A stretch of DNA of 64,000 bases from a virus. Its lineage: Duplodnaviria > Heunggongvirae > Uroviricota > Caudoviricetes. This document shows, one piece after another, positions 12,666 to 59,101 of this stretch. How positions within the stretch are numbered: the first letter of the stretch is position 1; the number at the start of each line of letters is the position of its first letter. The stretch lies in the IMG/VR virus record IMGVR_UViG_3300006143_000002. The stretch is one strand, 5' to 3'. The notes under the pieces are model-generated. The model did no database searches, had not been told where the DNA came from, and saw nothing but the letters and a program-made list of their open reading frames with translations. The translations under genes and the position numbers were made by a program.

Positions 12666-12694
12666 ATTTTATCATAGATATTTTTATCTGTCAA
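12666..12694 (-). promoter_or_regulatory. sigma-A-type promoter TTGACA-N17-TAAAAT
   Basis: Reverse complement reads TTGACAGATAAAAATATCTATGATAAAAT, upstream of the 11790..12605 gene. Confidence 0.5.
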
Positions 12695-12730
12695 TAGTAA
12701 AATAAAAAATTGCATAATATTTTTATCATG
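12694..12730. terminator. bidirectional hairpin terminator
   Basis: TTGCAT-AATATTTTTATC-ATGCAA flanked by T/A tracts on both strands, after the 12747..13262 gene. Confidence 0.45.
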
Positions 12731-12746
12731 CAATTTTTATCTTAAA

Positions 12747-13262
12747 TTATACATCTACTGATTTACTTTCTTTAATTCTGTGTCTGTGTATTGTGTCCCT
12801 ATGACTTTTAATAAATGCATCAATAGGTTGGTCTGGATATAATTCTTTATATCTATCAACAACAGAATGAAATTGTTTATTTGATATTCCAATCTTTCTA
12901 CAATACTCCCTAATAGGTAATGTATCTTTTAAATAATTTTCAACTGTTTTTGTAATATATTCATTTGAACTTGTTCTTAATATATGTGTACCTCTTTTTG
13001 GTACTTTATTTCTAATATCAAATCTTAAACTTTCAGCCTTCTTTTCTTTTTCAGGGTCTTTTCTACATTCATCACAAATAAATGCTATCATATATGGATT
13101 TTCTCTATTATGAAGAATTGCTCCTGGATTTCCACAGACAACACATTTCTTTACTATTCCACTTCTTCTTACAAAGTGAGCTACTTTAGTTCTTGCATTT
13201 GAATATTGGTCATCTGGTTTAACTATTTCACCTTTCTTTGGTCTTCCAGCTTTTCTTGCCAT
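12747..13262 (-). CDS. putative DNA-binding Zn-finger protein
   Basis: N-terminal AT-hook-like RPKKG plus CxxC...CxxC. Consensus promoter upstream. Confidence 0.4.
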   Translation of the reverse strand: MARKAGRPKKGEIVKPDDQYSNARTKVAHFVRRSGIVKKCVVCGNPGAILHNRENPYMIAFICDECRKDPEKEKKAESLRFDIRNKVPKRGTHILRTSSNEYITKTVENYLKDTLPIREYCRKIGISNKQFHSVVDRYKELYPDQPIDAFIKSHRDTIHRHRIKESKSVDV

Positions 13263-13303
13263 TTTACATTACACCTCCTTATAAGTCTATTTTTCCTAAC
13301 TAT

Positions 13304-13332
13304 ATTATACAATAATTTTGCAATTATGTCAA
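13304..13332 (-). promoter_or_regulatory. consensus promoter TTGACA-N17-TATAAT, with a second TTGACA 9 nt upstream
   Basis: Reverse complement reads CACTTGACAAATAAATACTTGACATAATTGCAAAATTATTGTATAAT. Precedes the RBS AGGAGG of the 12747..13262 gene. Confidence 0.6.
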
Positions 13333-13351
13333 GTATTTATTTGTCAAGTGT

Positions 13352-13831
13352 TTATGTAAAATCTTCCAAGACTTCTTTAGGTATAATATAGAAATCCTTT
13401 GATAAATTGCCTTCTATTTTATTATACCCAACATTATTAGATTCTAACCAATTTTTAAGATTAAAAGAAGTAGTATTATTCTTTAATTCAAATTTAGATA
13501 ATTGTACATTTTTCCAATCATCTCTTAAACTCATATCAATAAACTTACTACAAACAGAAAAATTATAGTTGCTATCGAATATATTAATATCTCCACTTAT
13601 CATATCTATATTAACACTCATATATTTATTACAATTTGGACAAATATGATGCATTTCAAATACATCTTTATTAATATCTTTTAAATCTATAATATATAAC
13701 AAATTTTTAAATGATTTTGTTTGCCAAAGAGTTGCTTCTTCTATGTCTGGAACTAAAATCTTTTTGCAAAATGGACATTCTTTTATTATTCTATCTGTAA
13801 CTGTTTTACTCATTTCATCAAACATACCCAT
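13352..13831 (-). CDS. Zn-ribbon protein
   Basis: CPFCKK...CPNCNKY motifs. Confidence 0.35.
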   Translation of the reverse strand: MGMFDEMSKTVTDRIIKECPFCKKILVPDIEEATLWQTKSFKNLLYIIDLKDINKDVFEMHHICPNCNKYMSVNIDMISGDINIFDSNYNFSVCSKFIDMSLRDDWKNVQLSKFELKNNTTSFNLKNWLESNNVGYNKIEGNLSKDFYIIPKEVLEDFT

Positions 13832-13832
13832 A

Positions 13833-14054
13833 TTATTTTACCTCCTGTTCACTTTTACTTTCAGAAACTAAACCATATAAAATATCTGCATTTACTTTAT
13901 CTTTACCATTTTCTTTAACAACATTACATATTTCAGATACTGTTGTTAAAAAATCAATAGTTCCATCTTCTGTTAAACACCATATTTTTTGATTAGGACT
14001 TGTATCTTCCATTTCTAATACATCATCCAATTTTAACCATATTTTGCTACTCAT
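13833..14054 (-). CDS. hypothetical small protein
   Basis: 73-aa ORF in the early operon. Confidence 0.3.
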   Translation of the reverse strand: MSSKIWLKLDDVLEMEDTSPNQKIWCLTEDGTIDFLTTVSEICNVVKENGKDKVNADILYGLVSESKSEQEVK

Positions 14055-14074
14055 TATAATTCACCTTCTTTCAT

Positions 14075-14281
14075 TTAATTTATTTTATCATAAACTATCA
14101 TTGCATAATGTTCAGTAACACACTCTGTATTCGTTACATTTGAAAATCCATTAACACTTCTTAAATGATGTAATTCTGTACTATATTGTACACTTATTAC
14201 ATTAATATTATTTGCTTCTATAAATGAGTTTACTTCTTTTTCAAATGCATCTGGGTTTATTTTATGTATTATTTTAATCAT
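14075..14281 (-). CDS. hypothetical small protein
   Basis: 68-aa ORF. Confidence 0.3.
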   Translation of the reverse strand: MIKIIHKINPDAFEKEVNSFIEANNINVISVQYSTELHHLRSVNGFSNVTNTECVTEHYAMIVYDKIN

Positions 14282-18361: not shown

Positions 18362-20818
18362 TTATACTCCTCCATTTGCATAATATTCATTTCTTAATGA
18401 AATAATATTATCTTTTTTCCTTAGTTCAACTATCTTACTGATATTTTCTTTACCAATATTAATATTTTCTTTTATATTTTCACAAGTATAACCTGTTTCT
18501 GTTCTAGTTTTTATTTGTTTTTGCATAATTATACTTTCACCATCTTCTGCTAGTTCACATTGTTTTAAATCAGATAATTTTACAAAATCATTATTTATAT
18601 TATCTAATATTTTCATATACTCAACACATTTATCATCATATTTATCTTTAATAAATTTATAAAAATAATTCGCAGTTGCATTATATAGTTTTCTTAATTC
18701 TACATTTTTACCATTCATAGTCATTTCATAAACAGTCCTCATAGACTTCCAAAAAGAATAATAACTAAATTTAAGCTTTGTCATAAATGTTCCACATTCA
18801 ATTACAACGCCTTCTATATCTGTGTCTATTAATTCATTTTGATTTTTATGTTGTTCATAAAATTCAGTTAATTGCCTATATGTATCAAATTTAATATATA
18901 CTTGCTTATAATCTGTATCTTTTAATTTTAACGATTTAGCAATTTGCATTAATCCATCATAAGGTATCTTCTCAAAATCTACTTTATTATGAATTATATC
19001 TAATAAGACAACTCTACTTTCTTTTTCATCTATAATATGAGGGTCATTTTCTAAATCTATAACTTCAAATGTCATTGACATATTATTATTTTTTAGAAAT
19101 ACTGTAATATTGTCTATTTGTTCTTCTGTAAATGTATTATAAAATAAATTTTTAAAATACATTGCATATTCTCCACAATTTGAAGATTTACTATGAAATT
19201 GTAAATTATCATTATAATAACTTAAAATGCCCAAGAAACCATTATATTTTTTATAAGCAACAACTTCTTCATCTGTATCAAATAATCTCTTTAAATTAAA
19301 TAATCTACATGATTCTTGTTCGTTTATATTAAAGAACTTTTCATAACCTCTTGCTACTATTTTATTATTTACAGTATCTATAAATAAACCTCTTGCTTTA
19401 ACAGTTTCCTTATCCCATTTATCTTTTTCAAATGCTTTACGTGTAAAGTTGAATGATGATATTCCACCTTCTAATACACTTTCTCTTATATTTCTATTAT
19501 TTCTTAATCTATCTACAATATTTTCTATATTTATTTCTTGTGTATTTACTATTTGTTGGTGTTCTTCCCAAGATGTATCCCTATATAAGTCATTTTTTAT
19601 ACTATGGAAAAATATACCCTTATTTGTTAATTCTGCTACTTTTAGATTTCCACCAAATTCAACACCATCCTCTAATGAGAATGATAAAGGTAAATCTCTC
19701 ATTGGTTTTTCTGGTGCAATATATCTATGTCCGTGTATTTGTATTATTGATTTATTTTTCATGTTTTCTGTATATGATTCGTCAATAGGGAATTTGAAAG
19801 CTCCAACACCATGTATCATTTGACTTGTTGATATTAAAGGTAAATTATTTGGGATAGTATTCAATCCCCCATGACATACAAAATATGTTTGTCCTTTAAA
19901 GTTTATATAAGCCATTTGTCCTAGTTTTCTATAAAACTTTCTCATACTTGATGGGTCTATTGATTTAATTTGTGGTAATGTAAAGTTCATAAATTCTTTA
20001 CTTTTAATCTCGCTATCCAGTTCATTTGCCCAATACCAAATAAATCTTTCATGATTTCCTTCTAATAAAAGTACATTACTTTTTTGACATATACTAATAA
20101 TAAATTCTAATACTTCCTTATTTTGTAGTCCTCTATCTAAATAGTCCCCTACAAATATATAAGCATCTTCATCATTTAAAAATTGATGTAAATTTTGAGA
20201 ATTTACTTCTTCTTGATATTCTGTATATGTTTGTTTTAGTATATATTCTTTTAATGGGTTAAAACAACCATGAATATCTCCTATAATATGTATTCTTTTA
20301 TACTCATTAAAATCAAATTCTTTATTACTAAATGTTTCCCAAAACTTATCTCTAGGAATATCTACCCAACCACTTGTCTTTTCTTGAGTTTCAAATCTTG
20401 CATACATTTTATCAATTACTTCATCAGGAACTCTTTTATAGGCATTTCTTTGATGATTTCTTTCTATACATACTTCTTTTGGTACATCTGTAAATGATAC
20501 TACATACTTTCTATATCTATATGATTCACATAATGAATTATATCTACTAAAATCTGTTGAACGGCTATGTGTTGCATCTATTATAGTAAAATCTCCATTT
20601 TTCATTCTTTTCTCTAATAATTCATATAATAATGACCATATATAAGATTCATTTTCTTGTGATATAGTTGCATCTGTTCCATTTTCTGTCAATATTGGTG
20701 CAGATGCCATCATTCTTATATTATCTGGGCTTATTGTATATTGCTCTAAACCATTTTCTTTTATCCAGGTTGATTTACCTGAACCTGGGCATCCCCTTAA
20801 AACCACTAAATTTCTCAT
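18362..20818 (-). CDS. pnkp: trifunctional polynucleotide kinase / metallophosphatase / RNA ligase (bacterial Pnkp-like)
   Basis: P-loop GCPGSGKST. Calcineurin-like motifs GDIHG, GDYLDRG, GNHE. C-terminal covalent nucleotidyltransferase motifs I KYNG, III TFEVID, IV EGVVIE, V KLK in order. Start set at MRNLVV after RBS GAGAGGTAGG. The ORF-track N-terminal extension overlaps the promoter. Confidence 0.75.
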   Translation of the reverse strand: MRNLVVLRGCPGSGKSTWIKENGLEQYTISPDNIRMMASAPILTENGTDATISQENESYIWSLLYELLEKRMKNGDFTIIDATHSRSTDFSRYNSLCESYRYRKYVVSFTDVPKEVCIERNHQRNAYKRVPDEVIDKMYARFETQEKTSGWVDIPRDKFWETFSNKEFDFNEYKRIHIIGDIHGCFNPLKEYILKQTYTEYQEEVNSQNLHQFLNDEDAYIFVGDYLDRGLQNKEVLEFIISICQKSNVLLLEGNHERFIWYWANELDSEIKSKEFMNFTLPQIKSIDPSSMRKFYRKLGQMAYINFKGQTYFVCHGGLNTIPNNLPLISTSQMIHGVGAFKFPIDESYTENMKNKSIIQIHGHRYIAPEKPMRDLPLSFSLEDGVEFGGNLKVAELTNKGIFFHSIKNDLYRDTSWEEHQQIVNTQEINIENIVDRLRNNRNIRESVLEGGISSFNFTRKAFEKDKWDKETVKARGLFIDTVNNKIVARGYEKFFNINEQESCRLFNLKRLFDTDEEVVAYKKYNGFLGILSYYNDNLQFHSKSSNCGEYAMYFKNLFYNTFTEEQIDNITVFLKNNNMSMTFEVIDLENDPHIIDEKESRVVLLDIIHNKVDFEKIPYDGLMQIAKSLKLKDTDYKQVYIKFDTYRQLTEFYEQHKNQNELIDTDIEGVVIECGTFMTKLKFSYYSFWKSMRTVYEMTMNGKNVELRKLYNATANYFYKFIKDKYDDKCVEYMKILDNINNDFVKLSDLKQCELAEDGESIIMQKQIKTRTETGYTCENIKENINIGKENISKIVELRKKDNIISLRNEYYANGGV

Positions 20819-20836
20819 AAAATTTCCTACCTCTCT

Positions 20837-20865
20837 GTTTTTGTTTATTATATAATAAGTTTTAA
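20837..20865 (-). promoter_or_regulatory. consensus promoter (extended family member), drives pnkp
   Basis: Reverse complement reads CTTGACATATTTTAAAACTTATTATATAAT. Confidence 0.6.
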
Positions 20866-20881
20866 AATATGTCAAGTATTT

Positions 20882-21112
20882 TTATAACTTTTTTAAATCT
20901 TCTATTAAATCAGTTCCATTATTACTATGAAATAGTGCATCTAAATCATGGTCAATACATATTTCTTTATTAGAATCAAATAACTCTGTATCTATATTAC
21001 TATTATCTAACCATGAATATAACTCACTTTCCAATAATGTTAATTTACTTCCTATTTCCTCTATCTCTGTAATCAAATCTAGTATTCTTTTTGGTATCTT
21101 CATTATCATCAC
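20882..21112 (-). CDS. hypothetical small protein
   Basis: 76-aa ORF. Confidence 0.25.
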   Translation of the reverse strand: MMIMKIPKRILDLITEIEEIGSKLTLLESELYSWLDNSNIDTELFDSNKEICIDHDLDALFHSNNGTDLIEDLKKL

Positions 21113-21114
21113 CT

Positions 21115-21747
21115 TTATTTATTTCTATCCTTATAAACATCTTCATACATCTTTCTCCACAAATTGTAACCATCTGCTTCTCCACCTCGTTTATAATGTC
21201 CCATCGTTGGTATCCAAATACAATCATAATCATATACTAATTCATAACTATTAGAAGTTATTATAATATGTATATCAATATTTTTTTCTTTACAATCATC
21301 TAATATCAACCTGAATAATGACCTATAAGTAAGCATTAAATCTATACTAACACCACTATCACAACCATCAATTAAAATATATCCTTCTTTAATATTACCA
21401 TCAACTAATTGTCTTACATAATCACCTATCTTTGGAACATTTATATCTACAAGTGTATCAAATACTCTTTGCCCCTCAGAACTTACTATATGTTTTGCTA
21501 ATGACTGCATATCACCTGATAATGTAAAACTATCTGCTTTATGTTTTCCTTCTTCATACACATTTACATTTATATATTTCTTTTTCTGCTCATCTAAATA
21601 ATCACAAATTTGGGTACAAGCATAAGTCTTTCCACTACCATTAGGTCCTGTTAAAACAGTTACCCCTGAATTTATTTCAATATCTTTTACATTATAACAT
21701 TTACCCTCTAATTTAAACTTTATCATTAAAAACTGCCTCCTATACAT
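21115..21747 (-). CDS. P-loop ATPase
   Basis: Walker A VLTGPNGSGKT and a Walker B-like ILIDGCDSG. Confidence 0.45.
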   Translation of the reverse strand: MYRRQFLMIKFKLEGKCYNVKDIEINSGVTVLTGPNGSGKTYACTQICDYLDEQKKKYINVNVYEEGKHKADSFTLSGDMQSLAKHIVSSEGQRVFDTLVDINVPKIGDYVRQLVDGNIKEGYILIDGCDSGVSIDLMLTYRSLFRLILDDCKEKNIDIHIIITSNSYELVYDYDCIWIPTMGHYKRGGEADGYNLWRKMYEDVYKDRNK

Positions 21748-21897
21748 GCTAAAATTCCTATAATACTTATCACTATTGCAGATATTCCAGCAAAATCTTC
21801 CATACCTGCAGCAACATCGTCTTTATATTTATATAATATTCCATTTCCTATTATAAATATTATAATACATATAATTATTCCTAATACTCTATTCATC

Positions 21898-22803
21898 TTA
21901 TTTTCCTCCTTTTTCTTCTGGATTTAATATTATATTCCTTTGTAATTTTGGCTTATCCTTTGCCTTTACATAACTTTCAATAAATACAATTTTACCATCT
22001 TTGTAATGTCTATAATGCCCTTTAACATCAAATTGATGAGAATATTCAAATCCTTCCCTTCTTTTAATCATAGTTTGTACTTTTGATTGAGGTGCTTTAG
22101 ATAAATCATAAAAACTTGTTGTAATAATCTTAGTATTTGATACTTTTTTAGGTCTTTTTCTATTTAAAATAGTATCTTTTACTTCTTCTTTAGACAACTG
22201 TTGTTCATATCTATATTTATTTTTATATAAAGTCATATACCACATTGCACTAATAAATAAACCTGTATATATCATCATCATTGAATTTTGGAACTCATGT
22301 TCTCCATCTATTGCACATGAAGCATTTTCTATAATAATTGTATTGCCAATCCCACTAATATCTCCCAAAGATGATAACAACTTATAATCAACATCTCTAT
22401 ATTTCTGCAATGGAATATTTATTATTTGCTGTTCTGTTATACTTGAAAATATAGTTATGTTTGGAAGATTATCTATAAACTTGTAACTTATAACTATATC
22501 ATTTAACATAACTGAATATACATCACGTTCTAATTCTTCTTCAATTACTCTATATGTTGTTTTGCATTCCTTAGCCATCTTCTTTATAAATTCACTTTTA
22601 CAATTATTTATAAATTCACAAGGTATATTAGAAATAGTTATATATCCTTCTTCAAATACTTTTGGAATATCACTTAATCTAGTATTTGAAATATCTTCAC
22701 AATACCACTTTAAAAATGGTATTGTCTTATTACTTGGAATACTTATTATAGGTAAATTATAATCTATTTTTAAATTTTTATTAAATTGTGCTTTATTACT
22801 CAT
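21898..22803 (-). CDS. hypothetical protein
   Basis: 301-aa ORF, no motif recognised. Confidence 0.35.
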   Translation of the reverse strand: MSNKAQFNKNLKIDYNLPIISIPSNKTIPFLKWYCEDISNTRLSDIPKVFEEGYITISNIPCEFINNCKSEFIKKMAKECKTTYRVIEEELERDVYSVMLNDIVISYKFIDNLPNITIFSSITEQQIINIPLQKYRDVDYKLLSSLGDISGIGNTIIIENASCAIDGEHEFQNSMMMIYTGLFISAMWYMTLYKNKYRYEQQLSKEEVKDTILNRKRPKKVSNTKIITTSFYDLSKAPQSKVQTMIKRREGFEYSHQFDVKGHYRHYKDGKIVFIESYVKAKDKPKLQRNIILNPEEKGGK

Positions 22804-22978
22804 ATCTACACAACTCCTTTAAATATGTATCATAATCTATGCTTTTCAATCTATTCTTAATAAACTTATATCTATCTCTTTGTATATAATCTCCACAATT
22901 TCCATCCTTACTTTCAGTTACATTACAAAATGGAAATTTACTACAAGTTCTGCACTTATTACATATAAAATTACTCAT
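22796..22978 (-). CDS. small Cys-rich protein
   Basis: [13 protein letters not shown]. Confidence 0.3.
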
Positions 22979-23876
22979 AGCTACCTCCTAATCTTGATGG
23001 GTGTCTTAATTTCCTAAATGCCCTTGCTTCTATTTGTCTTATTCTTTCTTTTGTTACACCTAGTTGCCTTCCTGTATCTTCTAATGTATATGGTGCATTA
23101 TTTAAACTTGTTCCATCTTTTATTTTTGGTATATCTTTATAATATATATCTGGTAATAGACCATACCTGTACTTTAATACAAAAGATTCTCTTGTTGTAA
23201 GTGTATTATTCAAATGATATATTAACTTTTGTACTATTCTAGAATTATTTTCTATTTTATCTATCTCATTAAGTATAAATTCATCATTTATTATATCTAC
23301 AGTAGTATTACTATATGTATCATCTATATATTCTTCTATTTTACTTGAATTTTGATTATGTATTATTTTTGCATGGTCAAACAAGTGCATTGTTCTTGCA
23401 AAACCTTTATTTCTATTATCTAACATTCTCATTTGATATTCAATTTCCAAATCTTTATCTTCCATAAAATAATCATTAGGATACTTTTTTCTATAATCTG
23501 CTATTGCTTCCTTTATATATTCTTCGTCTGTTTTACTTTCATATACTTTATGAAAGTAACCTCTATCTGTAATTTTATTTCTATAATATAAGTTAGATGC
23601 TAAACAATTAGAAGAATCACCATCTTTAAAATCAACAACATCTAAACCATCTTTATTATCTACAAAATATTCTGCAACTAAATTAGCAAGGTCTATTAAT
23701 CTAAAACCTTTTCGAGTACCTGTTCTCAAATATACTTTTGTTCTAGAACCTCCCGATGTAGATAAAGTATAATGTTTTAAATATTTACCTGTTGATTTTT
23801 CTCTAACTATACTCATATTAGATACTTCATAATCTTGGTTGTTTTCGATTGTTTTCCACTCTATCATAAACCTCAC
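22971..23876 (-). CDS. sigma-70 region-4 domain protein with an N-terminal NUMOD4-like motif
   Basis: C-terminus [15 protein letters not shown]...[29 protein letters not shown] is a near-textbook sigma region 4.1/4.2. N-terminus [20 protein letters not shown] resembles the NUMOD4 motif of homing endonucleases. Confidence 0.55.
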
Positions 23877-23902
23877 CTTCTTATATTATAATCTTATATA
23901 TT

Positions 23903-23977
23903 TGGCAGGAGTGCTAGGATTTGAACCCAGACAAACAGTTTTGGAGACTGCTGTGCTACCATTAACACTACACTCCT
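23903..23977 (-). tRNA. tRNA-Trp (anticodon CCA)
   Basis: 75-nt cloverleaf folded by hand: 7-bp acceptor AGGAGTG/CACTCCT, D-stem GTGT/GCAC, anticodon stem GCAGT/ACTGT with loop CTCCAAA, T-arm CTGGG-TTCAAAT-CCTAG, discriminator G and encoded CCA. Confidence 0.65.
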
Positions 23978-23986
23978 ATATAGGGT

Positions 23987-24062
23987 TGGAGCTTCATATT
24001 GGATTCGAACCAATGGTCACAGATTTGCAATCTGTTGCCTTAACCAACTTGGCTAATGAAGC
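23987..24062 (-). tRNA. tRNA-Cys (anticodon GCA)
   Basis: 76 nt: acceptor GCTTCAT/ATGAAGC, anticodon stem ACAGA/TCTGT with loop TTGCAAA, T-arm ATTGG-TTCGAAT-CCAAT, encoded CCA. Confidence 0.65.
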
Positions 24063-24086
24063 ATATAATTTGGTGGGTTAAGCCCA

Positions 24087-24875
24087 CTACTCTTCTTCTG
24101 GTACTAATAAAAATTTATCTATAAAATCTCTATCTTTATTAAATAATGGTATTTCTGTATCACAGAATATTCCCTCATCTTTTCTATATACACAAAATCC
24201 TCTTTTCCATTTAGTTTCTAAATTATTCCAATTTATATTGTACTTTTCCATTAACATATCTTGTATATCACTTGTATTTTTCTTATCAAGTTGTTTTTGA
24301 CTAAACTTTGATTGTCCTAGTGATTGTATTGAGTTTCTTGATGCATCTTGTTGCCTCCATAAAAAGTAATTACATACATCTTCCTTTGGTATATTAAATG
24401 CTCTTGCATCAAACATTGCTATACCCATTTTCTTTTGCCATTTATTAAATAAGTCTAAATTCTCTGGTTCATCTGAATTTGCATAACCAGACCAAGCTAA
24501 TACCTTTTGTGTTACAAACTTATTAAAATACATTGTTGCTGCTGATGCTATTACTGAACATACCTTTTGTAATCTATAATCAAAATAACTATCAGTAGTT
24601 AATTTATCCCAGTCTGTTAATAATAAACTTATCTCATCAGACTGTGTATATGCTAACTTGCACCCTTGAACACTCAATATAAGATTTTCACAAACATATT
24701 GCATTACTTGTGATAGTATTTCATCAAATGGTTTATCTAAACCTCTTGTAAATGTGTGGAATGCTTTACCATCTATTCTTACTATAACAGGTGTTCTTTT
24801 TGTAAGTTTAACATCTGATACAGATTCATAATCTTTCATTCTATCACTTAATGTTTTTATCTTTGAATTTGACAT
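24087..24875 (-). CDS. thg1: Thg1-like protein (tRNA 3'-5' nucleotidyltransferase, TLP)
   Basis: Collinear matches to the Thg1 family: VIVRIDGKAFHTFT, KPFD, LAYTQSDEISLLL, FDARAFNIPKEDVCNYFLWRQQDASRNSI, KYNINWNNLETKWKRG. Confidence 0.8.
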   Translation of the reverse strand: MSNSKIKTLSDRMKDYESVSDVKLTKRTPVIVRIDGKAFHTFTRGLDKPFDEILSQVMQYVCENLILSVQGCKLAYTQSDEISLLLTDWDKLTTDSYFDYRLQKVCSVIASAATMYFNKFVTQKVLAWSGYANSDEPENLDLFNKWQKKMGIAMFDARAFNIPKEDVCNYFLWRQQDASRNSIQSLGQSKFSQKQLDKKNTSDIQDMLMEKYNINWNNLETKWKRGFCVYRKDEGIFCDTEIPLFNKDRDFIDKFLLVPEEE

Positions 24876-24918
24876 TATATACTCCTCCTTAAAACTATTA
24901 TTTACTTATTATACCTAT

Positions 24919-24947
24919 ATTATACTATAAGTTTTAAAATATGTCAA
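24919..24947 (-). promoter_or_regulatory. consensus promoter (extended family), drives the Thg1-like gene
   Basis: Reverse complement reads CCTTGACATATTTTAAAACTTATAGTATAAT. Confidence 0.6.
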
Positions 24948-24970
24948 GGGTTTTTTCAAAATTTATTAAA

Positions 24971-25021
24971 AAATTTAAGACAGTTGAAATTTATACTTAT
25001 AAACTTATATCAACTGTCTAT
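24971..25021 (-). terminator. hairpin terminator (9-bp stem GACAGTTGA/TCAACTGTC, 22-nt loop)
   Basis: Follows the stop of the nucleotidyltransferase gene, then TTAAATTTTTTAAT, just before the promoter at 24919..24947. Confidence 0.4.
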
Positions 25022-25057
25022 CTAAAATAGTTTCTAGGGAAACCTGATAAAGAAGAA

Positions 25058-25861
25058 CTATATTGTAAAATCATAATTTAAAGCTTTCTCATTTATATCT
25101 ATCAACCATTTATTTATTTTATGATAATCTGGTGTCTTTTGTAATGTACTTTCATCATAGTATTGGTGTATCTCTTTATCTAATCTGTCAAACATATCAA
25201 ATATTTCTTCTAATGTATATTTTCCTGCTCTTATATCTAATAATAATTTTCTCTCTTCTTCTGGTCTGTAAGAACAATAATCATGTGTTAATAATATTTG
25301 TTTTGCACAATATAGTAATCTTATAGCATGATAAGCAAATTTAGTATCATAACCAAATTTTTCAACTAAATCTTGTCTGCCAGTTCCATTTTGCTTCTTT
25401 ATATCTAGTTTATACCTTTGTGACATTGCAAATCCACAAAACTTTTTATATATTTCCTTAGATAAAAATTCTTTTCTTATACTTCTTAACTCTTTTCCAA
25501 AATCATCTATATGAATTATATCTTCATCTCTACAAAATAGTATATCAATATTATTTGGTACACCTTGCATAGCGTCTCTAACAAATTTATTTATATGGCA
25601 TATTACTATATCAATATCTTCTTTTGTATTATGTTCTCCAAAATTTTTACCACCAGACTTATTATATTCATTTATAGATTTTAATCCTAAATAATATTCT
25701 TTTGGTGGAATACATACACCCTTATAATCAGTATCAGATGTTTCTACATTTGTTCCATATATAACTGAACCTGCTTTAGTTAATAATATTGTTCTGTCTT
25801 CCAACCACATCATATTATCTGGTAGAACATGTTCTATATCTTTAAAACTAACTTTTGCCAT
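25058..25861 (-). CDS. Pol-beta-superfamily nucleotidyltransferase (RlaP / PF10127-like, RNA-repair-associated type)
   Basis: GSVIYGTNVETSDTDYKGV matches the hG[GS]...SDxD nucleotidyltransferase signature. 267 aa. Adjacent to the Thg1-like gene. Confidence 0.5.
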   Translation of the reverse strand: MAKVSFKDIEHVLPDNMMWLEDRTILLTKAGSVIYGTNVETSDTDYKGVCIPPKEYYLGLKSINEYNKSGGKNFGEHNTKEDIDIVICHINKFVRDAMQGVPNNIDILFCRDEDIIHIDDFGKELRSIRKEFLSKEIYKKFCGFAMSQRYKLDIKKQNGTGRQDLVEKFGYDTKFAYHAIRLLYCAKQILLTHDYCSYRPEEERKLLLDIRAGKYTLEEIFDMFDRLDKEIHQYYDESTLQKTPDYHKINKWLIDINEKALNYDFTI

Positions 25862-25872
25862 TTATATCACCT

Positions 25873-26679
25873 CTATTTACTTATATTGAATAAAGCTGAA
25901 GTATTCTCACCCATCATAGTAGTAGGGAATTGTCCATTCCATTTTTCAATCATTTTTTGTTTAATTTCTAATTCTTTTAATTGTAATGTCTTATCTGTTA
26001 TTTGATTATTTTGTAGTTCCATTACTTTTGCATCTTTTTCTGCAATACTTATTTCCTTTTCATTTTGAATTTTTTGTTTTTCTAATTCTGCTTGTGCAGT
26101 TACTACCTCTTGTTGTTTAACTGCTTTTGCTTCTATTGCTGCGTTAAAAGCATCACTAAAATCTATATTTGTTGTATTAAATTCTGTTATAGTAATTCCT
26201 CTACTATCTATTTTATTTGTTAATGATTCTCTAATCATTGAAGATACTTCTGCTCTTTTTGTTATTAACTCTTCTGCTGTATATTGTGCCATTACACTCT
26301 TAACACTCTCTAATATAGCAGGATTTATAACTATATTTTCAAAGTCTGTACCAACCTCTCTATATAATTTATTTGCTGTGTCTTTTCTTACATTATAATT
26401 TAATGCTATTGTTACTGATACTGTTTGTAAATCTTTGGTGCTACTTTCAGATGTAGCATCTATTTTCTTTGTTTTGCAATCTACTAATACAATTTTTTCT
26501 ATAAATGGTATTTTACCATTTAGTCCTTCTTGTAATACATCGTTCTGTACTTTCCCAAATTGGGTCTTTACACCAACACATCCTGTTGGAATTGTTTTAA
26601 ATGAATTAAATAATACTATTACTGCAACTATTAAAATTATACCTAATACAATCCATTTAATTGTCTTTCTGTTTTCCAT
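25873..26679 (-). CDS. SPFH / Band-7 (prohibitin/HflK-like) membrane protein
   Basis: N-terminal TM helix, then GCVGVKTQFGKVQNDVLQEGLNGKIPFIEKI, the start of an SPFH domain, and a C-terminal coiled-coil. Confidence 0.6.
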   Translation of the reverse strand: MENRKTIKWIVLGIILIVAVIVLFNSFKTIPTGCVGVKTQFGKVQNDVLQEGLNGKIPFIEKIVLVDCKTKKIDATSESSTKDLQTVSVTIALNYNVRKDTANKLYREVGTDFENIVINPAILESVKSVMAQYTAEELITKRAEVSSMIRESLTNKIDSRGITITEFNTTNIDFSDAFNAAIEAKAVKQQEVVTAQAELEKQKIQNEKEISIAEKDAKVMELQNNQITDKTLQLKELEIKQKMIEKWNGQFPTTMMGENTSALFNISK

Positions 26680-26750
26680 TTAACATCTACCTCCAAATTA
26701 AATTTTGTTGACAGAATTTTTAAAACAACTCTGTCAACATTAATAACATC

Positions 26751-29597: not shown

Positions 29598-29627
29598 AGA
29601 TACACCTCCTTTTTAATATCTGTAATT

Positions 29628-29656
29628 ATATTACTATAAGTTTTAAAATTTGTCAA
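29628..29656 (-). promoter_or_regulatory. promoter TTGACA-N17-TAATAT (extended family)
   Basis: Reverse complement reads CCCTTGACAAATTTTAAAACTTATAGTAATAT. The -35 overlaps the stem of an upstream 14-bp terminator hairpin. Confidence 0.55.
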
Positions 29657-29699
29657 GGGTTTTTACTAAATTTATTAAATTATTTTTAGTAAAAACCCT
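29657..29699 (-). terminator. 14-bp-stem hairpin terminator overlapping the -35 of the next promoter
   Basis: GGGTTTTTACTAAA-(14-nt loop)-TTTAGTAAAAACCC directly after the ligA stop. Confidence 0.5.
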
Positions 29700-29704
29700 C
29701 TTCT

Positions 29705-31694: not shown

Positions 31695-32565
31695 ACTCCT
31701 TATTAAATATTCCTTTTTTTATATGATGTCTTATGTGCATAGCCAATTTCATACTCTTACCAAAATTTGGATTAGATTTACCTTTCATAGAACCATCTCT
31801 AATACCAGATTTAAGCTCTGCTTTATATGTATTCCACTTTTCTGATTTTATCATGCCATTTTTAGTAGATATAGATGTTTTTTCTCTTTCCAGTACATTA
31901 CTAAATCTTTCTTTCTGTGCATTTGATAAATTTTGTTTCATACTATCTGTAAAATGTTTACCATACATCGGATTTTTATCTCCTGATAAATCAGATTTTT
32001 TATGCCTTCCCTCCTTGTATGCCAATTTTAAAGATATACTTCTTTTATTTCTTTCACTTTCTGTTTGTATTCTTCCTTTATTATACTTACCCATATCTTT
32101 ACTCTTCAATGTTTCTGATATTCTTTTTCTGGTTTCTTCACTGTGATAATATCCATATAACTCTATTTTTCTTTTCATAGATTCTTTTAACTTATTTCTT
32201 GTTTCTTGTGGTATTTTTCTTTCTTTTGCACTTAAAGACATTTTTTCTTTTGTTGATAGAGTATGTTCATCTTTTGAACCTTTTCCACCATGTTGAATAT
32301 TATAACAATATTCATCTTCTAGAACTTCTTTGGTTATGATTTCATTTTCAAATTTCAAAGCTTCATCATGACTTTCAAAAAATTTTATGATTTCTCTACT
32401 AAAACTTTCTTTCCCATACTTTCTAACTGCATTTAAAAAATGATACCCAGAACCAATATAACCATCATTTATGTTATTTGTACTATGAACACCATAGTAA
32501 TAATAAGGTGTTCCAATCCTTCTTGTGATATAAACAAAATGATACTTTTTCATATAATATTTCAC
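31672..32565 (-). CDS. GIY-YIG homing-endonuclease-like protein
   Basis: N-terminus YHFVYITRRIGTPYYYYGVHST...GYIGSG has GIY-x10-YIG spacing. K/S-rich C-terminus. Lies directly upstream of ligA. Confidence 0.5.
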   Translation of the reverse strand: MKYYMKKYHFVYITRRIGTPYYYYGVHSTNNINDGYIGSGYHFLNAVRKYGKESFSREIIKFFESHDEALKFENEIITKEVLEDEYCYNIQHGGKGSKDEHTLSTKEKMSLSAKERKIPQETRNKLKESMKRKIELYGYYHSEETRKRISETLKSKDMGKYNKGRIQTESERNKRSISLKLAYKEGRHKKSDLSGDKNPMYGKHFTDSMKQNLSNAQKERFSNVLEREKTSISTKNGMIKSEKWNTYKAELKSGIRDGSMKGKSNPNFGKSMKLAMHIRHHIKKGIFNKECDYCVIR

Positions 32566-32584
32566 CTCATTAATATTTTACTAA
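32565..32584 (-). promoter_or_regulatory. conserved late-gene motif (AGTAAAATATTAATGAGGTG)
   Basis: Here the GAGG of the motif doubles as the RBS, 9 nt before the ATG of the GIY-YIG gene. Confidence 0.4.
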
Positions 32585-43138: not shown

Positions 43139-43540
43139 CTATACTAATTCTGCAATATCACACTCTAGTACTTCTGCAAGTTTCTTTATTGTTTTTAAAG
43201 TTGGGTTATCTCTATCTCCACTTCTTAACATATCTAAATATCTAACAGTCATTCCTGCTTTAACAGCAATTTGTTTACTAGACATATATTCTCTTTGTGA
43301 TATTATCCTATTTAATTTATCTGCAAAACTTTCTTCCTTATTTGATTTTCTAATTACTTTGTCTGTATTTGAATATAATTTAGGAAGTAACCTAGTTATA
43401 ACAACATCTTTGGTTAAATCTTTTTCTTCATCATCTAATAATGATATTGTTTTTATACTTCTGCCTCCATCTGGTCTATTAAACTCAACTACTGGTTCTC
43501 TCAAAAACATTTTAATTGTATTTACCTCTAACTTTTTCAT
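43139..43540 (-). CDS. XRE-family HTH transcriptional regulator
   Basis: C-terminal HTH SSKQIAVKAGMTVRYLDMLRSG...LKTIKKLAEVLECDIAEL. Confidence 0.5.
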   Translation of the reverse strand: MKKLEVNTIKMFLREPVVEFNRPDGGRSIKTISLLDDEEKDLTKDVVITRLLPKLYSNTDKVIRKSNKEESFADKLNRIISQREYMSSKQIAVKAGMTVRYLDMLRSGDRDNPTLKTIKKLAEVLECDIAELV

Positions 43541-45136: not shown

Positions 45137-45236
45137 TTTGATTTACCACCTTTCTTAAATAATTCTTTTATATTGTATGATAATAATTTTAAAAATTGTC
45201 AACATTTAAAATTATTATTTCCTTTTACATCTGTTA

Positions 45237-50453: not shown

Positions 50454-50474
50454 CATCATTAATATTTTACCGAA
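50454..50474 (-). promoter_or_regulatory. conserved late-gene motif
   Basis: TCGGTAAAATATTAATGATGGAGGTG after two hairpins, and abutting the RBS of the 49832..50437 gene. Confidence 0.45.
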
Positions 50475-52668: not shown

Positions 52669-52689
52669 CCCTATTAATATTTTACCAAA
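52669..52689 (-). promoter_or_regulatory. conserved late-gene motif upstream of terL
   Basis: TTTTGGTAAAATATTAATAGGGAGGTAGG directly after a terminator. Confidence 0.45.
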
Positions 52690-53114: not shown

Positions 53115-55634
53115 TTATATATCCCATCTTATTGGAATTAAAAATTCTTGTAATTCTGCTTGATGTCCATCTAACATATAATCTATGAAGTCACCTGCAT
53201 CATAATATGAATATGCATCATCAAAGTCCTCATAATCATCACCAGTAAATTCATTTACACCTAATTCAATTAGCTTATTATAAATTCCCTCAACATCTCC
53301 ATTAAATGTATATAATGCCATTCTATGAGTACCATCATGATGTATTAAATTTATTGATAGACTTTCGTCATCACTTGTTTCAAACTCTATTATATCATAA
53401 TCTGCAACTAATGATTTAAAATCGTCCATTCCTCTTAATACTTTTCCTGCATTACCAGTTCCTCTCCAAGTTTGTGCTGTACCTAACATTATAACTAAAT
53501 CATTATCATCTAATTGTCTTTCTATCATAGGTAGTATATTCTCGTTCCAATCTTCTGATATTGCTTCATTATCATTTTCATTGTACATTTCTAAATAGTC
53601 TTGAATTAAGCCATCATAAATATTGTCCATCTCTTCTTGGTTATTTGGGTCTATTCCTAAATTTTCTGCTTCTTCTTGTGCTTCTGCATTTACATCATGA
53701 AACTCCGCTAACCACTCTTTAAAGTCAGGGTCATTCTGGTCAACATACTCACTTTCAGAACTCCATACTTTTGTTCCTTCAACTATCTTTTTACTTTCTG
53801 TTTCTTTTCTTCTCTGAATTTCATTATCAACATCCATATATAACTGGTCTAAATAATCAGCTACTTCTGTATTATCTTCTGTTCCTTCTCTTTTATTAAT
53901 TATATCTGTCATATATGCATCTAAATCTTCTGTTGACATATCTTTATAATTTGGTTCTTCTAAATTTTCTGTTATTTTCTTATTTTCTTCATATTCTTTT
54001 CTATATTCACCTGCCACATCTTCTAGTATATTTATTGTTTCTTTAAATCTATTCTCAAAATCGAAATCAGTATTTTTAATATATTCTACTAAACCTTTTG
54101 AACCACCTTTTATATTTAATGCTGGTATTAAGTATCCTATATTTCCCATTATTTTTGATTTATTAGCAGTTATTAAATCTTCATCATTATCTTTTATTGC
54201 ATCTTGTAATTCTTCTAAATAAATATCTAAATTTTGTAATCTATTATTTATTCTTCTGTCTGCCTCATTTCCATATAAGTCTTTAGATAAGTCACCTTCA
54301 ACTTTTTTACTCTCTTCAAGTTCTTCATTATACCAACTACCATCACATGTTATTTGTTGACTTTCACCTGTTTCAGATGATGTTACTGTCCATCCTATAT
54401 TTCTTGTCAAAACACCATCATCTGTAAATCTTGAAGGATTCAAACCTGCATCTTCAAGTGCTTGTTCTATTTCATAAAATATACCTTTATCATAGGTATC
54501 TCCTTCTGTCAATTTTTTACTTTCTTCAAATTCTTCTTCGTCATCATACTCATATAATTCATCATCTTCTACATAACTTGTATCTACTTTACTTAACACT
54601 GTAACAAAGTTATCAGCCCAACTAAATGCACTATCAGCTTTATAATCATTAAATAGTTCATCTATTGCTTCTTCAATAGTATTATTATCTTCTATTAGAT
54701 TTAAAATATTAGATATAGTTAAATCCATATATGAATTTAGATGATGAGATTTATCAGAATTATTTAAAATATCAACAGCTTTCTTTGGAAAATAGAAACC
54801 ATCAACTAATGTTTTATTATCTCCTTCATCTAACATATCTTTTAAATCTTTGAAAGCATCTCTAGCCTCTTGTGGTATATTTTTCTTTACTCTTTCACTA
54901 TAATCTTTTGCTAATGATTTTTCATTTTCTACATAGTCACCATAAGCATCTTCTTGTAGTTTCTTTCCTTCTATTTGTTTACTTTCTTTTCTCAATGGAT
55001 TTTCCTCCTCATCTTCAACCATTTCAGGTTCTTCTAAACTTTCTTGATTTTCTATATCTTCTGGTTCTTCAAGATTTTCTTCGTGTTCTATATTATCCTG
55101 TACTTCTTCTTTATCTGTCACAGCATTTGTATTTTCAACTCTACCATTCACAACAAAACTATCTGGTACTTTACAACATATAGGGCATGTATCTTCTCCA
55201 CTATCTAATAATGTATCATTTACAAATGTTCCTCCACATATAGGGCATGATAAAATATAATCTCCCTCATATTTATCTGTAAATGGTAATTCTCCTACAT
55301 CTGTATTATCAACTATACCCTGTAATTCGTCAGCTACTTCTTCAAATTCCTCACTTGTTATTTCAGGGTCTGTTACTACTAATATTCCATCTGCAATTCC
55401 ATCAACATTTTCCTCATCTTTCTCTGTTTCTGGTTTATTTGGGTCTTCTCTTGTTGGTGCAGATTTAATTATATTTGCAGTATCTATTGCTTCTTGGTTT
55501 GCATCTTTAACATTTTTATCTATTTTTATTTCTGTATCTTGTTTTCCTATTACATTATCTTCTTCTACTTTTTGTGTTTTTCCTAACATTTGAGCCATAA
55601 GTTCATGTAATGATTTTCCGTTTCCTACATCCAT
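53115..55634 (-). CDS. large acidic protein with a Zn ribbon
   Basis: Start set at MDVGNGK after RBS AGGAGG. The ORF-track extension overlaps the promoter. Contains CPICGG...CPICC and is very D/E-rich. Confidence 0.4.
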   Translation of the reverse strand: MDVGNGKSLHELMAQMLGKTQKVEEDNVIGKQDTEIKIDKNVKDANQEAIDTANIIKSAPTREDPNKPETEKDEENVDGIADGILVVTDPEITSEEFEEVADELQGIVDNTDVGELPFTDKYEGDYILSCPICGGTFVNDTLLDSGEDTCPICCKVPDSFVVNGRVENTNAVTDKEEVQDNIEHEENLEEPEDIENQESLEEPEMVEDEEENPLRKESKQIEGKKLQEDAYGDYVENEKSLAKDYSERVKKNIPQEARDAFKDLKDMLDEGDNKTLVDGFYFPKKAVDILNNSDKSHHLNSYMDLTISNILNLIEDNNTIEEAIDELFNDYKADSAFSWADNFVTVLSKVDTSYVEDDELYEYDDEEEFEESKKLTEGDTYDKGIFYEIEQALEDAGLNPSRFTDDGVLTRNIGWTVTSSETGESQQITCDGSWYNEELEESKKVEGDLSKDLYGNEADRRINNRLQNLDIYLEELQDAIKDNDEDLITANKSKIMGNIGYLIPALNIKGGSKGLVEYIKNTDFDFENRFKETINILEDVAGEYRKEYEENKKITENLEEPNYKDMSTEDLDAYMTDIINKREGTEDNTEVADYLDQLYMDVDNEIQRRKETESKKIVEGTKVWSSESEYVDQNDPDFKEWLAEFHDVNAEAQEEAENLGIDPNNQEEMDNIYDGLIQDYLEMYNENDNEAISEDWNENILPMIERQLDDNDLVIMLGTAQTWRGTGNAGKVLRGMDDFKSLVADYDIIEFETSDDESLSINLIHHDGTHRMALYTFNGDVEGIYNKLIELGVNEFTGDDYEDFDDAYSYYDAGDFIDYMLDGHQAELQEFLIPIRWDI

Positions 55635-55721: not shown

Positions 55722-55742
55722 CATCATTAATATTTTACCAAT
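55722..55742 (-). promoter_or_regulatory. conserved late-gene motif
   Basis: TTATTGGTAAAATATTAATGATGA after a terminator. The consensus promoter at 55666..55694 follows. Confidence 0.45.
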
Positions 55743-57710: not shown

Positions 57711-57711
57711 T

Positions 57712-57978
57712 TTACTTTTCCTCCTCTTTCTCACCTTTACTTTTTTCTTTTTCTAAAACCTTTGTAAGTTCTTGAATTGTAGTTTGTAAATCATTTATTA
57801 TCATTCTAACAACCTCTGACCTATCTCCTATATCTAAATAATTCTTTGCCATTCCAAATTGATAAGCTGGATAGGTATGTTCTGTATCAACAATGTGTGT
57901 AATACCATCTTCCTGTACTTTAGTTTTTTGATACCATGTTTTATGAATTTCAAACTCAACATCATTACTTAACCTCAT
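57712..57978 (-). CDS. hypothetical protein
   Basis: 88 aa, E/K-rich C-terminus. Confidence 0.3.
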   Translation of the reverse strand: MRLSNDVEFEIHKTWYQKTKVQEDGITHIVDTEHTYPAYQFGMAKNYLDIGDRSEVVRMIINDLQTTIQELTKVLEKEKSKGEKEEEK

Positions 57979-58003
57979 TGTAGATTACCACCTTTGTTAT
58001 TGA

Positions 58004-58153
58004 TTAACCTTGTGCTTCTTCTTCACTTTCAACACCAATGCCATCTTCAATCTTTTCAGACCAATCATTAGCAGGGTCATTCATACATTGTTGTCCCAAT
58101 TCCTCATTGTACTCAATAATCTCATTAGGTTCTAACCAATTCTTTTCTTCCAT
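58004..58153 (-). CDS. small acidic protein (not in the ORF track)
   Basis: 49-aa ORF MEEKNWLEPNEIIEYNEELGQQCMNDPANDWSEKIEDGIGVESEEEAQG, with RBS GAGGAGG and a late motif directly upstream. Confidence 0.3.
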   Translation of the reverse strand: MEEKNWLEPNEIIEYNEELGQQCMNDPANDWSEKIEDGIGVESEEEAQG

Positions 58154-58177
58154 ATTCTTCTACCTCCTCATAGAATA

Positions 58178-58198
58178 TCTCATTAATATTTTACAGAA
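58178..58198 (-). promoter_or_regulatory. conserved late-gene motif
   Basis: TTCTGTAAAATATTAATGAGAT after a terminator, ahead of the 49-aa ORF. Confidence 0.4.
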
Positions 58199-58235
58199 CA
58201 AAAAAAGAAACTCCTATTTGAGTTTCTTTTAAATC
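58199..58235 (-). terminator. rho-independent terminator
   Basis: AAAAGAAACTCAAATAGGAGTTTCTTTTTTTG. Confidence 0.5.
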
Positions 58236-58435
58236 TCAATCTCTAATTATACTACGTCCCAATAATCTAATAATTCTCTTACTGTACTTATATTTTCTGT
58301 TGGTGGTATTTGCCCTAATGAATCTTCTATAACATTTAGTATATTAGATAATTCTAAATCCTCTGGTAAATTCATTAGAAAATCTACAAATTTTTCAAAT
58401 AATTGTTCTTCATTCATTGATATTACCTCCTTCCA

Positions 58436-59038
58436 TTAACCTAAAGTATATATAATAAATCTTTCTTCTGGGAATATTCTATAACAATTATCTTCTTCTC
58501 TTGCTATAAAATCTTCATCAGATTCTTCTTCATCTTTAAAATCGTCAAAGTCACCATAAGAACCATTTACTAATACATTATCTATTACTGCCATTGGATT
58601 ATAATTGATAAATCCTAATTGCTCATCAATAATTTCCATTAGTTCATCCCATACTAAATCTGGTACTTCTCCCCATGATTCTTTTACCCATCCTGCTCTT
58701 GCATCTAGAGCACTTTTATAAACTTCTGGTGCATTATGGAATATTTCTTCCCATTCTCCCTCATCTAAATAATTTGTGTATCCATTTCCATTCCATTCTT
58801 CTGCCATTTCATAAATATTGCTATTTTCAGTAATATATGTGTCTACTACTTCAAATACTATTTCTCTTATTTCATCATAATCACCATTTGTATAACCAAA
58901 ATTTTCTAAATCTTCAGATGATATAAATGTATCAGTAAATTCATCTGTTGCATCATCCACATCTCTGTATCTCATATCATCATCTAACTCACACCAATTT
59001 TGTATTAAATCTCTTAATTCTTGTTCTTTCTTTTCCAT
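58436..59038 (-). CDS. acidic hypothetical protein
   Basis: 200 aa, D/E/W-rich. Late motif and consensus promoter upstream. Confidence 0.35.
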   Translation of the reverse strand: MEKKEQELRDLIQNWCELDDDMRYRDVDDATDEFTDTFISSEDLENFGYTNGDYDEIREIVFEVVDTYITENSNIYEMAEEWNGNGYTNYLDEGEWEEIFHNAPEVYKSALDARAGWVKESWGEVPDLVWDELMEIIDEQLGFINYNPMAVIDNVLVNGSYGDFDDFKDEEESDEDFIAREEDNCYRIFPEERFIIYTLG

Positions 59039-59072
59039 ATTAAATCCTCCAATTCAATTTTAATCTATACTT

Positions 59073-59101
59073 ATAATACTATAAGTTTTAAAATATGTCA
59101 A
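59073..59101 (-). promoter_or_regulatory. promoter TTGACA-N17-TATTAT (extended family)
   Basis: Reverse complement reads CTTGACATATTTTAAAACTTATAGTATTAT. Confidence 0.55.

Follow-up and report, generated by a model that had tools for sequence, protein, structure and literature searches.

The 64,000-nt stretch of DNA analysed here (the window; IMG/VR virus record IMGVR_UViG_3300006143_000002, Caudoviricetes) carries a family of minus-strand promoters in which the 17-nt spacer between the -35 and -10 hexamers is close to invariant. That these are strong early promoters of the sigma-A type with a functional spacer is well supported. The explanation we favour, which on the present sequences has about an even chance of being right, is that they are early promoters read by the host sigma-A in a jumbo phage of ~222 kb, and that the spacer itself is part of what is recognized. 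Genes of the window occur on contigs of up to 222,235 nt (exact-protein look-ups), and IMG/VR contigs extend it at both ends with 100% identity; together these place the window in a jumbo phage of ~222 kb. A megablast with 12 kb of the window found no match among INPHARED phages. The host is taken to be one of the low-GC gut Clostridia, judging only from GC content, a dockerin domain and matches in metagenome-assembled genomes (MAGs).

The 30-mer CTTGACATATTTTAAAACTTATAGTATAAT, with up to three mismatches allowed, is found at eight sites in the window, all on the minus strand (P1 to P4 and P6 to P9 in Table 1), while none is expected from 100 shuffles. Looser matching adds P5, the promoter of the tRNA array (six mismatches), and P10 (five mismatches). 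In total the window holds ten minus-strand copies of the form A-tract–CTTGACA–TATTTTAAAACTTATAG–TAnnnT and one promoter, P11, that combines consensus hexamers with a spacer unrelated to the family. A search with the hexamers alone (TTGACA-N17-TATAAT, at most one mismatch) gives nine sites, nine of nine on the minus strand, against 2.7 expected. Generic promoter-like matches of 9/12 are not enriched in this DNA of 27% GC; the only class that stands out is that of 11-12/12, which is the spacer family. All called genes of the window are on the minus strand, and all family copies are intergenic and co-oriented with the gene downstream, several being preceded by terminator hairpins. The original prediction, made from the letters of this window, had described TTGACA-N17-TATAAT promoters that share an extended sequence and an upstream A-tract and point in the minus direction in front of early or accessory genes. 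The family, its A-tract and its placement are all confirmed, as are the names of the downstream genes (Pnkp, the Thg1-like protein or TLP, the tRNA array, the XRE regulator and the acidic proteins). One copy had been missed, a decayed tandem promoter (P3'). No family copy is found in the structural-type region at positions 1-12000, where a second motif, GTAAAATATTAATGA, occurs instead, and this complementary distribution supports the label "early" for the TTGACA family.

A motif search of IMG/VR recovered other parts of the same genome, which match the window at the promoter alone; these further contigs hold at least 25 copies. The window and these same-phage contigs give 27 non-redundant family copies, from which the anatomy of the module was read (numbering with the -10 box at -12 to -7). 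C at -36 and TTGACA at -35 to -30 are present in 27 of 27, and TTGACA is also invariant in every family copy found in relatives. The spacer is 17 nt long in every family copy and is conserved at 93-100% at 15 of its 17 positions, with A at -14 in 74% and G at -13 in 78%. For the most part it varies less than the inner positions of the -10 box TAnnnT, whose outer bases (T-12, A-11, T-7) are 100% and whose inner ones are 67-89% conserved (TATAAT, TATTAT, TAATAT, TACAAT and TATACT are seen). Upstream, AAA at -52 to -50 is ~80%, TTTT at -49 to -46 is 67-89% and AAAAA at -43 to -39 is 93-100% conserved, and the predicted +1 is A in 89%. In P1 the UP-like A/T block reaches ~16 nt further upstream, and transcription is predicted to start 7 nt beyond the -10 box. 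The A and T runs of the family lie within ~1 nt of the E. coli-derived consensus of the UP element, the site of the C-terminal domain of the RNA polymerase alpha subunit (-38 to -59), which reportedly has an A-tract near -41 to -44 and a T-tract near -47 to -50. With the -35, the UP-like A/T, the A at +1 and the tolerance pattern of the -10 box, the sites appear to have everything expected of sigma-A promoters. That tolerance of -10 variants, as expected for sigma-A, is the best internal evidence that they are real promoters.

The uniformity of the spacer is also evident when sites are collected by their hexamers only. In the window and the same-phage contigs there are 34 TTGACA-N17-TAnnnT sites, 25 of which have a spacer with no more than 3/17 mismatches from the consensus; the other nine differ from it at 4-10 positions, for the most part no better than chance. 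Eight copies, including P3 and P8, belong to a long form of ~95 bp, in which TTTAATAAATTTTGAAAAAACC leads to the core, a conserved leader ATAGTAAGTAAATAATA and the Shine-Dalgarno (SD) sequence. The leader folds no better than shuffled sequence and is not a structured RNA element. An Rfam search of the window found tRNAs only.

Conservation of the promoter in related genomes

Five related genomes were compared with the window: IMGVR_UViG_3300045988_082442 (213.7 kb; hereafter the 213-kb relative), which is syntenic with it and has proteins 50-80% identical, and L098, L100, L102 and L108 (contigs up to 224 kb), sampled as 20-kb regions through homologs of two window proteins. All five carry the promoter family, and every TTGACA-N17-TAnnnT in the sampled regions has the family spacer. 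P5, P6, P7 and P8 can be matched by position across five genomes. Compared pairwise without gaps, these orthologs are identical at 100% in the -35 box, 89% in the spacer, 88% in the -10 box, 75% in the proximal UP element and 45-49% in the flanks on both sides. Individual copies also keep their own variants. The spacer of P7 starts with TTT in 4/5 genomes, and P5 orthologs keep CTTGTGG, a canonical TRTGn "-16" motif. Because such copy-specific variants are inherited orthologously, the conservation of the spacer points to selection rather than homogenisation. Purifying selection on the spacer, with copies that are old and evolve largely independently, is thus well supported by the alignments.

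The uniformity could instead be historical, a product of recent cassette copying or of gene conversion (as proposed for promoter-early stem-loop (PeSL) cassettes of T4-type phages), with the spacer itself neutral. Traces of copying are present. Eight non-homologous genes are preceded by near-identical long forms, and the likeness does not extend past the start codon. At P3 a perfect long-form cassette has been inserted; on its downstream side stands an older promoter, now decayed to a 19-nt spacer, that is truly orthologous to the promoter of the 213-kb relative. P9 and the promoter L068:1529 of the 213-kb relative are each present in one genome and absent from the other, the window having a 1-nt gene junction where L068:1529 would lie. 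In the 213-kb relative, two spacer changes are common to most copies. However, the same spacer is found in six genomes with proteins 50-80% identical and intergenic flanks near random, and gene conversion, acting inside one genome, has no means of keeping sequences alike from genome to genome. Relatives that are recent recombinants sharing segments are argued against by the diverged coding sequences, and most differences in gene content are not bounded by promoter copies. Since the copies are old and positionally orthologous and keep the spacer while the flanks have fallen to 45-49%, recent duplication or gene conversion is not the main cause. As the sole cause, historical copying is largely refuted by the ortholog identities, and we regard it as very improbable. 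A recently duplicated cassette, one option of the original prediction, thus fails as the whole explanation. Its suggestion that the spacer carries information of its own is borne out, both by conservation equal to that of the -10 box in orthologs and by a uniformity far beyond that of other phage arrays.

This uniformity was compared with that of three control arrays scored in the same way, the terminal region of a Staphylococcus Kayvirus (L105) and two unrelated IMG/VR phages. In all three the A-tract/TTGACA/TAnnnT architecture is the same but the spacers vary, with a mean pairwise spacer identity of 0.37-0.43, against 0.75-0.86 in this group. An invariant spacer is not ordinary for phage early promoters. 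A 70-mer BLAST against plasmids and phages returned only generic UP/-35/-10 resemblance (Kayvirus, a 350-kb plasmid of B. thuringiensis, Fusobacterium phage Fnu1), and in the literature the sequence of the family gave only a chance primer match.

The wording of the spacer differs between clades. In the 213-kb relative the consensus is AAAAATG-CTTGACA-AAATTTAAAACTTATAR-TAnnnT, with spacer positions 1 and 3 changed (TAT to AAA or GAA) at most copies, orthologous ones included. The distant clades L106 and L107 (33-38% protein identity) have a family of their own, AAAAACC-TTTACA-AATTTTTAAATA-N5-TATAAT, in which the 5' half of the spacer is invariant and the consensus equals the spacer of the window phage at 12/17 positions. 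A fixed spacer with clade-specific wording thus characterizes the phage group as a whole. L106 has a tandem pair of promoters of the TTTACA type. An IMG/VR scan for the TTTACA-type pattern was too unspecific, with single chance matches among the matches listed.

There is little in favour of a dyad-symmetric repressor operator. The only symmetries are an 8-bp palindrome, TTTTAAAA, and the dyad TTATA-G-TATAA, and neither is conserved; in the 213-kb relative the former becomes ATTTAAAA and the latter TTATAATAnAnT.

Possible readers of the spacer

The sequences show the anatomy, number and orientation of the sites, their conservation across genomes and the contrast with other phages. From these we infer reading by host sigma-A, early firing, and a spacer that works by contact with RNA polymerase or by the shape of the DNA. 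In such a scheme the unmodified sigma-A RNA polymerase of the host would read the family promoters once phage DNA enters the cell. The site would be a maximal module of UP-like A/T (AAA, TTTT, n, AAAAA; -52 to -39), C plus TTGACA, the fixed 17-nt spacer, TAnnnT and A at +1. The T4A4 block of the spacer, lying about two helical turns from the upstream A-tract, may give the DNA a defined bend, and the 3' end of the spacer (TATAG, with variants TATGn and TGTGn) would sit where Gram-positive promoters have the "-16" or extended -10 element, G at -13 being conserved. Purifying selection would have maintained all positions of the module from a time before the related genomes split, and the result would be a uniformly very strong start for all early units, able to out-compete host promoters. 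The early region would consist of short units, each made of a terminator, a promoter and one to several genes. Occasionally a ~95-bp cassette (UP, core, leader, SD) would replace or join an older promoter, as at P3, and promoters would be gained and lost, as at P9 and L068:1529. RNA polymerase or DNA shape is favoured as the reader because of the phasing of T4A4, the "-16" position with G at -13, and the use of the same promoter by small Rep elements, described below. Among early promoters of T4, "additional regions of consensus" beyond UP/-35/TGn/-10 are described (PMC2988021), and sigma-70 can sense spacer sequence near -18 (PMC3130263).

Copies outside phages were sought in one genome per bacterial species with the pattern CTTGACA-NNN-TTTAAAACTTATA. 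The scan gave 28 loci, nearly all in gut MAGs labelled Clostridium, Clostridia or Bacilli (24-31% GC), NNN being mostly TAT. They fall in two contexts. The first is contigs of ~3 kb encoding Rep proteins of the REP_ORF2-G2P type (L070, L077, L083, L087, L093, L096). These are probably small circles (L083 was assembled as a 3.2-kb tandem repeat) and may be small plasmids, single-stranded DNA elements or satellites. Their promoter is complete, including a proper -10 box, comes in the TAT or the AAA version and is oriented against the Rep open reading frames; GTAAAATATTAATGA is present too. Since elements of this size are probably unable to supply a dedicated factor, a reader supplied by the host is favoured.

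The second context is integrated loci resembling mobile elements (in L070-L097, e.g., L075, L076, L078, L086), and here several observations weigh against recognition of the spacer by RNA polymerase. These loci have a 23-nt block, CTTG(A/T)CATATTTTAAAACTTATA, without a -10 box at N17 and 4-60 nt upstream of a different, recognizable promoter. In one version the block reads CTTGTCA, so that TTGTCA replaces TTGACA. Such a block without a -10 box looks more like a protein-binding site than a promoter. Early promoters of other phages have unrelated spacers, and so does the one host housekeeping promoter seen, that of the signal recognition particle (SRP) RNA in L084 (AAAAAAATG-TTGTAA-N17-TATAAT); RNA polymerase therefore does not require this spacer. 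Nor would a fixed optimum of RNA polymerase predict the rewording of TAT to AAA or GAA in the 213-kb relative. The blocks without a -10 box, the rewording between lineages and a spacer that is dispensable elsewhere make a dedicated DNA-binding reader a serious rival.

On that account a sequence-specific protein of the phage, the host or a mobile element binds the ~23-nt block of -35 plus spacer (CTTGACA-TATTTTAAAACTTATA) and would switch all early promoters jointly, by shut-off at the onset of the second class or by a boost at entry, while the hexamers serve RNA polymerase. We consider this possible rather than probable. A spacer as strict as the -10 box is stricter than RNA polymerase needs, and the block of the integrated elements is 100% conserved across species while its flanks are roughly 60% identical (by eye). 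The versions in different lineages (TAT, AAA, TTTACA-AATTTTTAAATA) are what co-evolution of a site and its reader would give. The sole window protein with homologs in the integrated elements of MAGs (48% identity) is the 162-aa product of the gene behind P6. Its AlphaFold2 model (pLDDT 88) is a plain helical bundle with an invariant loop, LSQVGPPSFMAD, and no DNA-binding or otherwise informative fold match was found for it. No candidate reader has been identified. The "sigma-region-4 protein" (22971-23867), with which the original prediction had proposed to test binding of the spacer, is an HNH endonuclease with a C-terminal helix-turn-helix (HTH); given its HNH domain and its absence from the 213-kb relative, it is a homing endonuclease and not a candidate regulator. 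In addition, the site as a whole is asymmetric, with a single palindrome that has not been conserved, the family spacer was not found outside promoters within the window, and the ~3-kb Rep elements have the full promoter, with no regulator family and no homolog of the 162-aa protein found in them. By informal comparison, we know of no Firmicute regulator site (Spo0A, CodY, CcpA, TnrA, PhoP/WalR) that fits the block.

Some jumbo phages use virion-packaged RNA polymerases, and a polymerase or sigma factor specified by the phage might read the family, the long conserved sequence being its promoter. The promoter is indeed long and nearly invariant across phages of ~220 kb, several large window proteins have no family match, and the retention of GTAAAATATTAATGA in clades at 33-38% protein identity suggests phage-specified transcription for at least one class. 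Yet the sites have a 12/12 sigma-A consensus, a textbook pattern of -10 variants and an UP-like element, no match to an RNA polymerase or sigma family was found among the window proteins, and the same promoter is carried by ~3-kb Rep elements too small to encode a polymerase. This explanation is improbable.

The second motif accompanies the block in the same MAG loci, with 23 matches to GTAAAATATTAATGA in 176 kb, of which seven are exact. None of the explanations tested to date covers both the 23-nt blocks without a -10 box and the co-occurring GTAAAATATTAATGA. One integrated element adjoins a tRNA gene and has a cI/cro-like pair. PADLOC found no defence system in the operon of an integrated element, and Pfam searches of the MAG elements gave only DUF6809 and DUF6664, besides the Rep of the ~3-kb contigs. 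A broader proposal, which we rate as rather unlikely, is that the -35 plus spacer block and GTAAAATATTAATGA are two words of a cis-regulatory code that a family of jumbo phages of ~200-240 kb shares with unrelated integrated elements and ~3-kb Rep elements from the same gut Clostridia, and that dedicated trans-acting factors read. The small elements would then be satellites or eavesdroppers on early and late phage signals, or the phage would plug into a regulator of the host or of mobile elements. The invariant spacer would be an operator inside a sigma-A promoter, co-evolving with its reader in the TAT, AAA and TTTACA-AATTTTTAAATA versions.

The family is real and well defined, and it is of interest for its strict spacer, for the wording particular to each clade and for the presence of both motifs in other mobile elements. 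If RNA polymerase is what the spacer works through, this is an unusually clean natural case of promoter strength residing outside the hexamers in Gram-positive bacteria, and its dozens of replicates and evolutionary versions are suited to spacer swaps and to promoter design for low-GC Firmicutes. If a separate factor reads the spacer, the block would be a global early switch in an undescribed family of jumbo phages and a link to small mobile elements of the same hosts. Either way, the two motifs give a temporal map, early versus late, for annotating uncultured phages of ~220 kb.

Second motif and neighbouring genes

GTAAAATATTAATGA has eight exact matches in the window, all on the minus strand and intergenic (Table 1). 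It often has TTG(G) just before it and usually lies after a terminator, 10-60 nt ahead of a start codon. It precedes the tail-fibre-like gene, genes for proteins of 760 and 941 aa and others, and is conserved in every related clade. It is probably a middle or late promoter class for structural-type genes, and would take over from the family promoters for structural and late genes, standing in tandem with P1 and P2. At 11729-11772, ahead of the 941-aa gene, GTAAAATATTAATGA is paired with an imperfect copy of itself in inverse orientation (GGTAAAATATTAATGAGG ... CCTCATTAATATTTTTT), which gives a hairpin-like inverted repeat.

The tail-fibre-like protein (1768-4323, minus strand) has a Peptidase_G2 autoproteolytic domain and a type I dockerin domain, and the latter hints at a host among cellulosome-bearing Clostridia. 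The acidic products of the P1 and P2 genes, with 58 and 219 aspartate plus glutamate residues and an isoelectric point of 4.05 each, have no family match. Genes for RNA repair and tRNAs are dense at 18362-37903, including Pnkp, RlaP, an NAD-dependent ligase and at least eight tRNAs. A CCA-adding-like nucleotidyltransferase-phosphoesterase is encoded at 36359-37903, a tRNA-like gene with an unreadable anticodon lies at 34872-34945, and a second Thg1-like gene, in addition to that behind P8, is found at 62381-63229. No relatives of Pnkp were found in IMG/VR. The segment 22971-24062 (minus strand), with the HNH endonuclease (sigma-r4-like HTH), tRNA-Cys and tRNA-Trp, is an insertion with respect to the 213-kb relative (L034) and looks like a homing-endonuclease cassette. 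In the 213-kb relative an insert (L054, ~7439-8260) appears to interrupt the NAD-ligase gene; it is homologous to the 293-aa gene (31672-32553) upstream of the ligase gene (29705-31336) in the window and may be an intron or an intein-type mobile insertion.

Table 1. Promoters and copies of the second motif in the window
Feature	Coordinates	Strand	Sequence	Gene or context
P1	59073..59102	-	C + -35 + spacer + -10 TATTAT	200-aa acidic protein, 58436-59038
P2	55666..55695	-	spacer variant CTTGTAT	839-aa acidic protein, 53115-55634; orthologs L064:8212, L108:9940
P3	45236..45265	-	perfect 30-mer, long form (UP + core + conserved leader)	directly 5' of older promoter (P3')
P3'	45172..45202	-	decayed tandem promoter TTGACA-N19-TACAAT	true ortholog of L039:252 in the 213-kb relative
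P4	43653..43682	-	-10 TACAAT	XRE-type HTH, 43139-43540
P5	36314..36343	-	variant CTTGACATATATTTAAACTTGTGGTAATAT, canonical TGTGn "-16" motif; orthologs keep the variant	tRNA array, 35793-34768
P6	34557..34586	-	perfect 30-mer, directly after terminator hairpin 34602-34629	162-aa helical protein, 34025-34513 (-)
P7	29628..29657	-	spacer starts AAT, -10 TAATAT	948-aa protein, 26751-29597
P8	24919..24948	-	perfect 30-mer, long form	Thg1-like protein, 24087-24875
P9	20847..20876	-	family promoter	Pnkp (kinase-phosphatase-RNA ligase), 18362-20818; the 213-kb relative has none here
P10	13304..13333	-	consensus hexamers, half-related spacer TAATTGCAAAATTATTG; second TTGACA 16 nt upstream	
P11	12666..12695	-	TTGACA-N17-TAAAAT, TG extended -10, unrelated spacer; outside the spacer family	after terminator hairpin
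GTAAAATATTAATGA	4370-4384	-		intergenic
GTAAAATATTAATGA	8061-8075	-		intergenic
GTAAAATATTAATGA	11758-11772	-		intergenic
GTAAAATATTAATGA	32567-32581	-		intergenic
GTAAAATATTAATGA	50456-50470	-		intergenic
GTAAAATATTAATGA	52671-52685	-	2 mismatches	intergenic
GTAAAATATTAATGA	58180-58194	-		intergenic
GTAAAATATTAATGA	55724-55738	-		tandem, upstream of P2
GTAAAATATTAATGA	59141-59155	-		tandem, upstream of P1

Comparison with known systems

The early promoters of T4, with their "uber" UP/-35/TGn/-10 consensus (Hinton 2010, PMC2988021), likewise form a numerous class of very strong host-sigma promoters in a large lytic phage. In addition to an UP element and hexamers close to consensus, they have conserved positions elsewhere in the promoter, and they are thought to out-compete host promoters at entry. 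In the window phage, in contrast, the whole 17-nt spacer is close to invariant and not just biased, the main form is TATAG with no TGn, the host is Gram-positive, and no Alt-like modifier was identified.

The closest described relatives of the long form are the PeSL cassettes of T4-type phages (Arbiol 2010, PMC2839356; Comeau 2014, PMC4122927). These too are repeats of ~100 bp with an AT-rich upstream part, a sigma-70-like early promoter and an SD, standing before unrelated small genes with terminators nearby. Conservation over ~100 bp from the AT-rich part to the SD in front of unrelated open reading frames is found in the eight-copy long-form subset, and here too cassettes seem to have been inserted or replaced, and promoters gained and lost. 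Indels bounded by cassettes amount to one insertion (P3) and two cases of presence or absence, and most other differences are not so bounded. Unlike PeSLs, the conserved unit here contains no stem-loop; hairpins precede P2, P3, P6 and P11 only and differ in sequence. The copies are also mostly positionally orthologous, which points to selection rather than mobility.

The terminal array of the Staphylococcus Kayvirus (Twort-like) has a similarly dense set of A-tract plus TTGACA-N17-TAnnAT promoters before small early genes, in a phage of a low-GC Gram-positive host. Its spacers vary, however, with a mean pairwise identity of 0.37 against 0.78 in this window.

Finally, the 3' end of the spacer lies where Gram-positive promoters reportedly have a "-16 region" (TRTG) or extended -10 element. 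The minority variants TATGG, TATGA and TGTGG alone fit TRTGn, whereas the commonest form, TATAG-TAnnnT, has A at -14 and its G at -13 instead of -14. The conserved block reaches 12 nt further upstream than any -16 element known to us.

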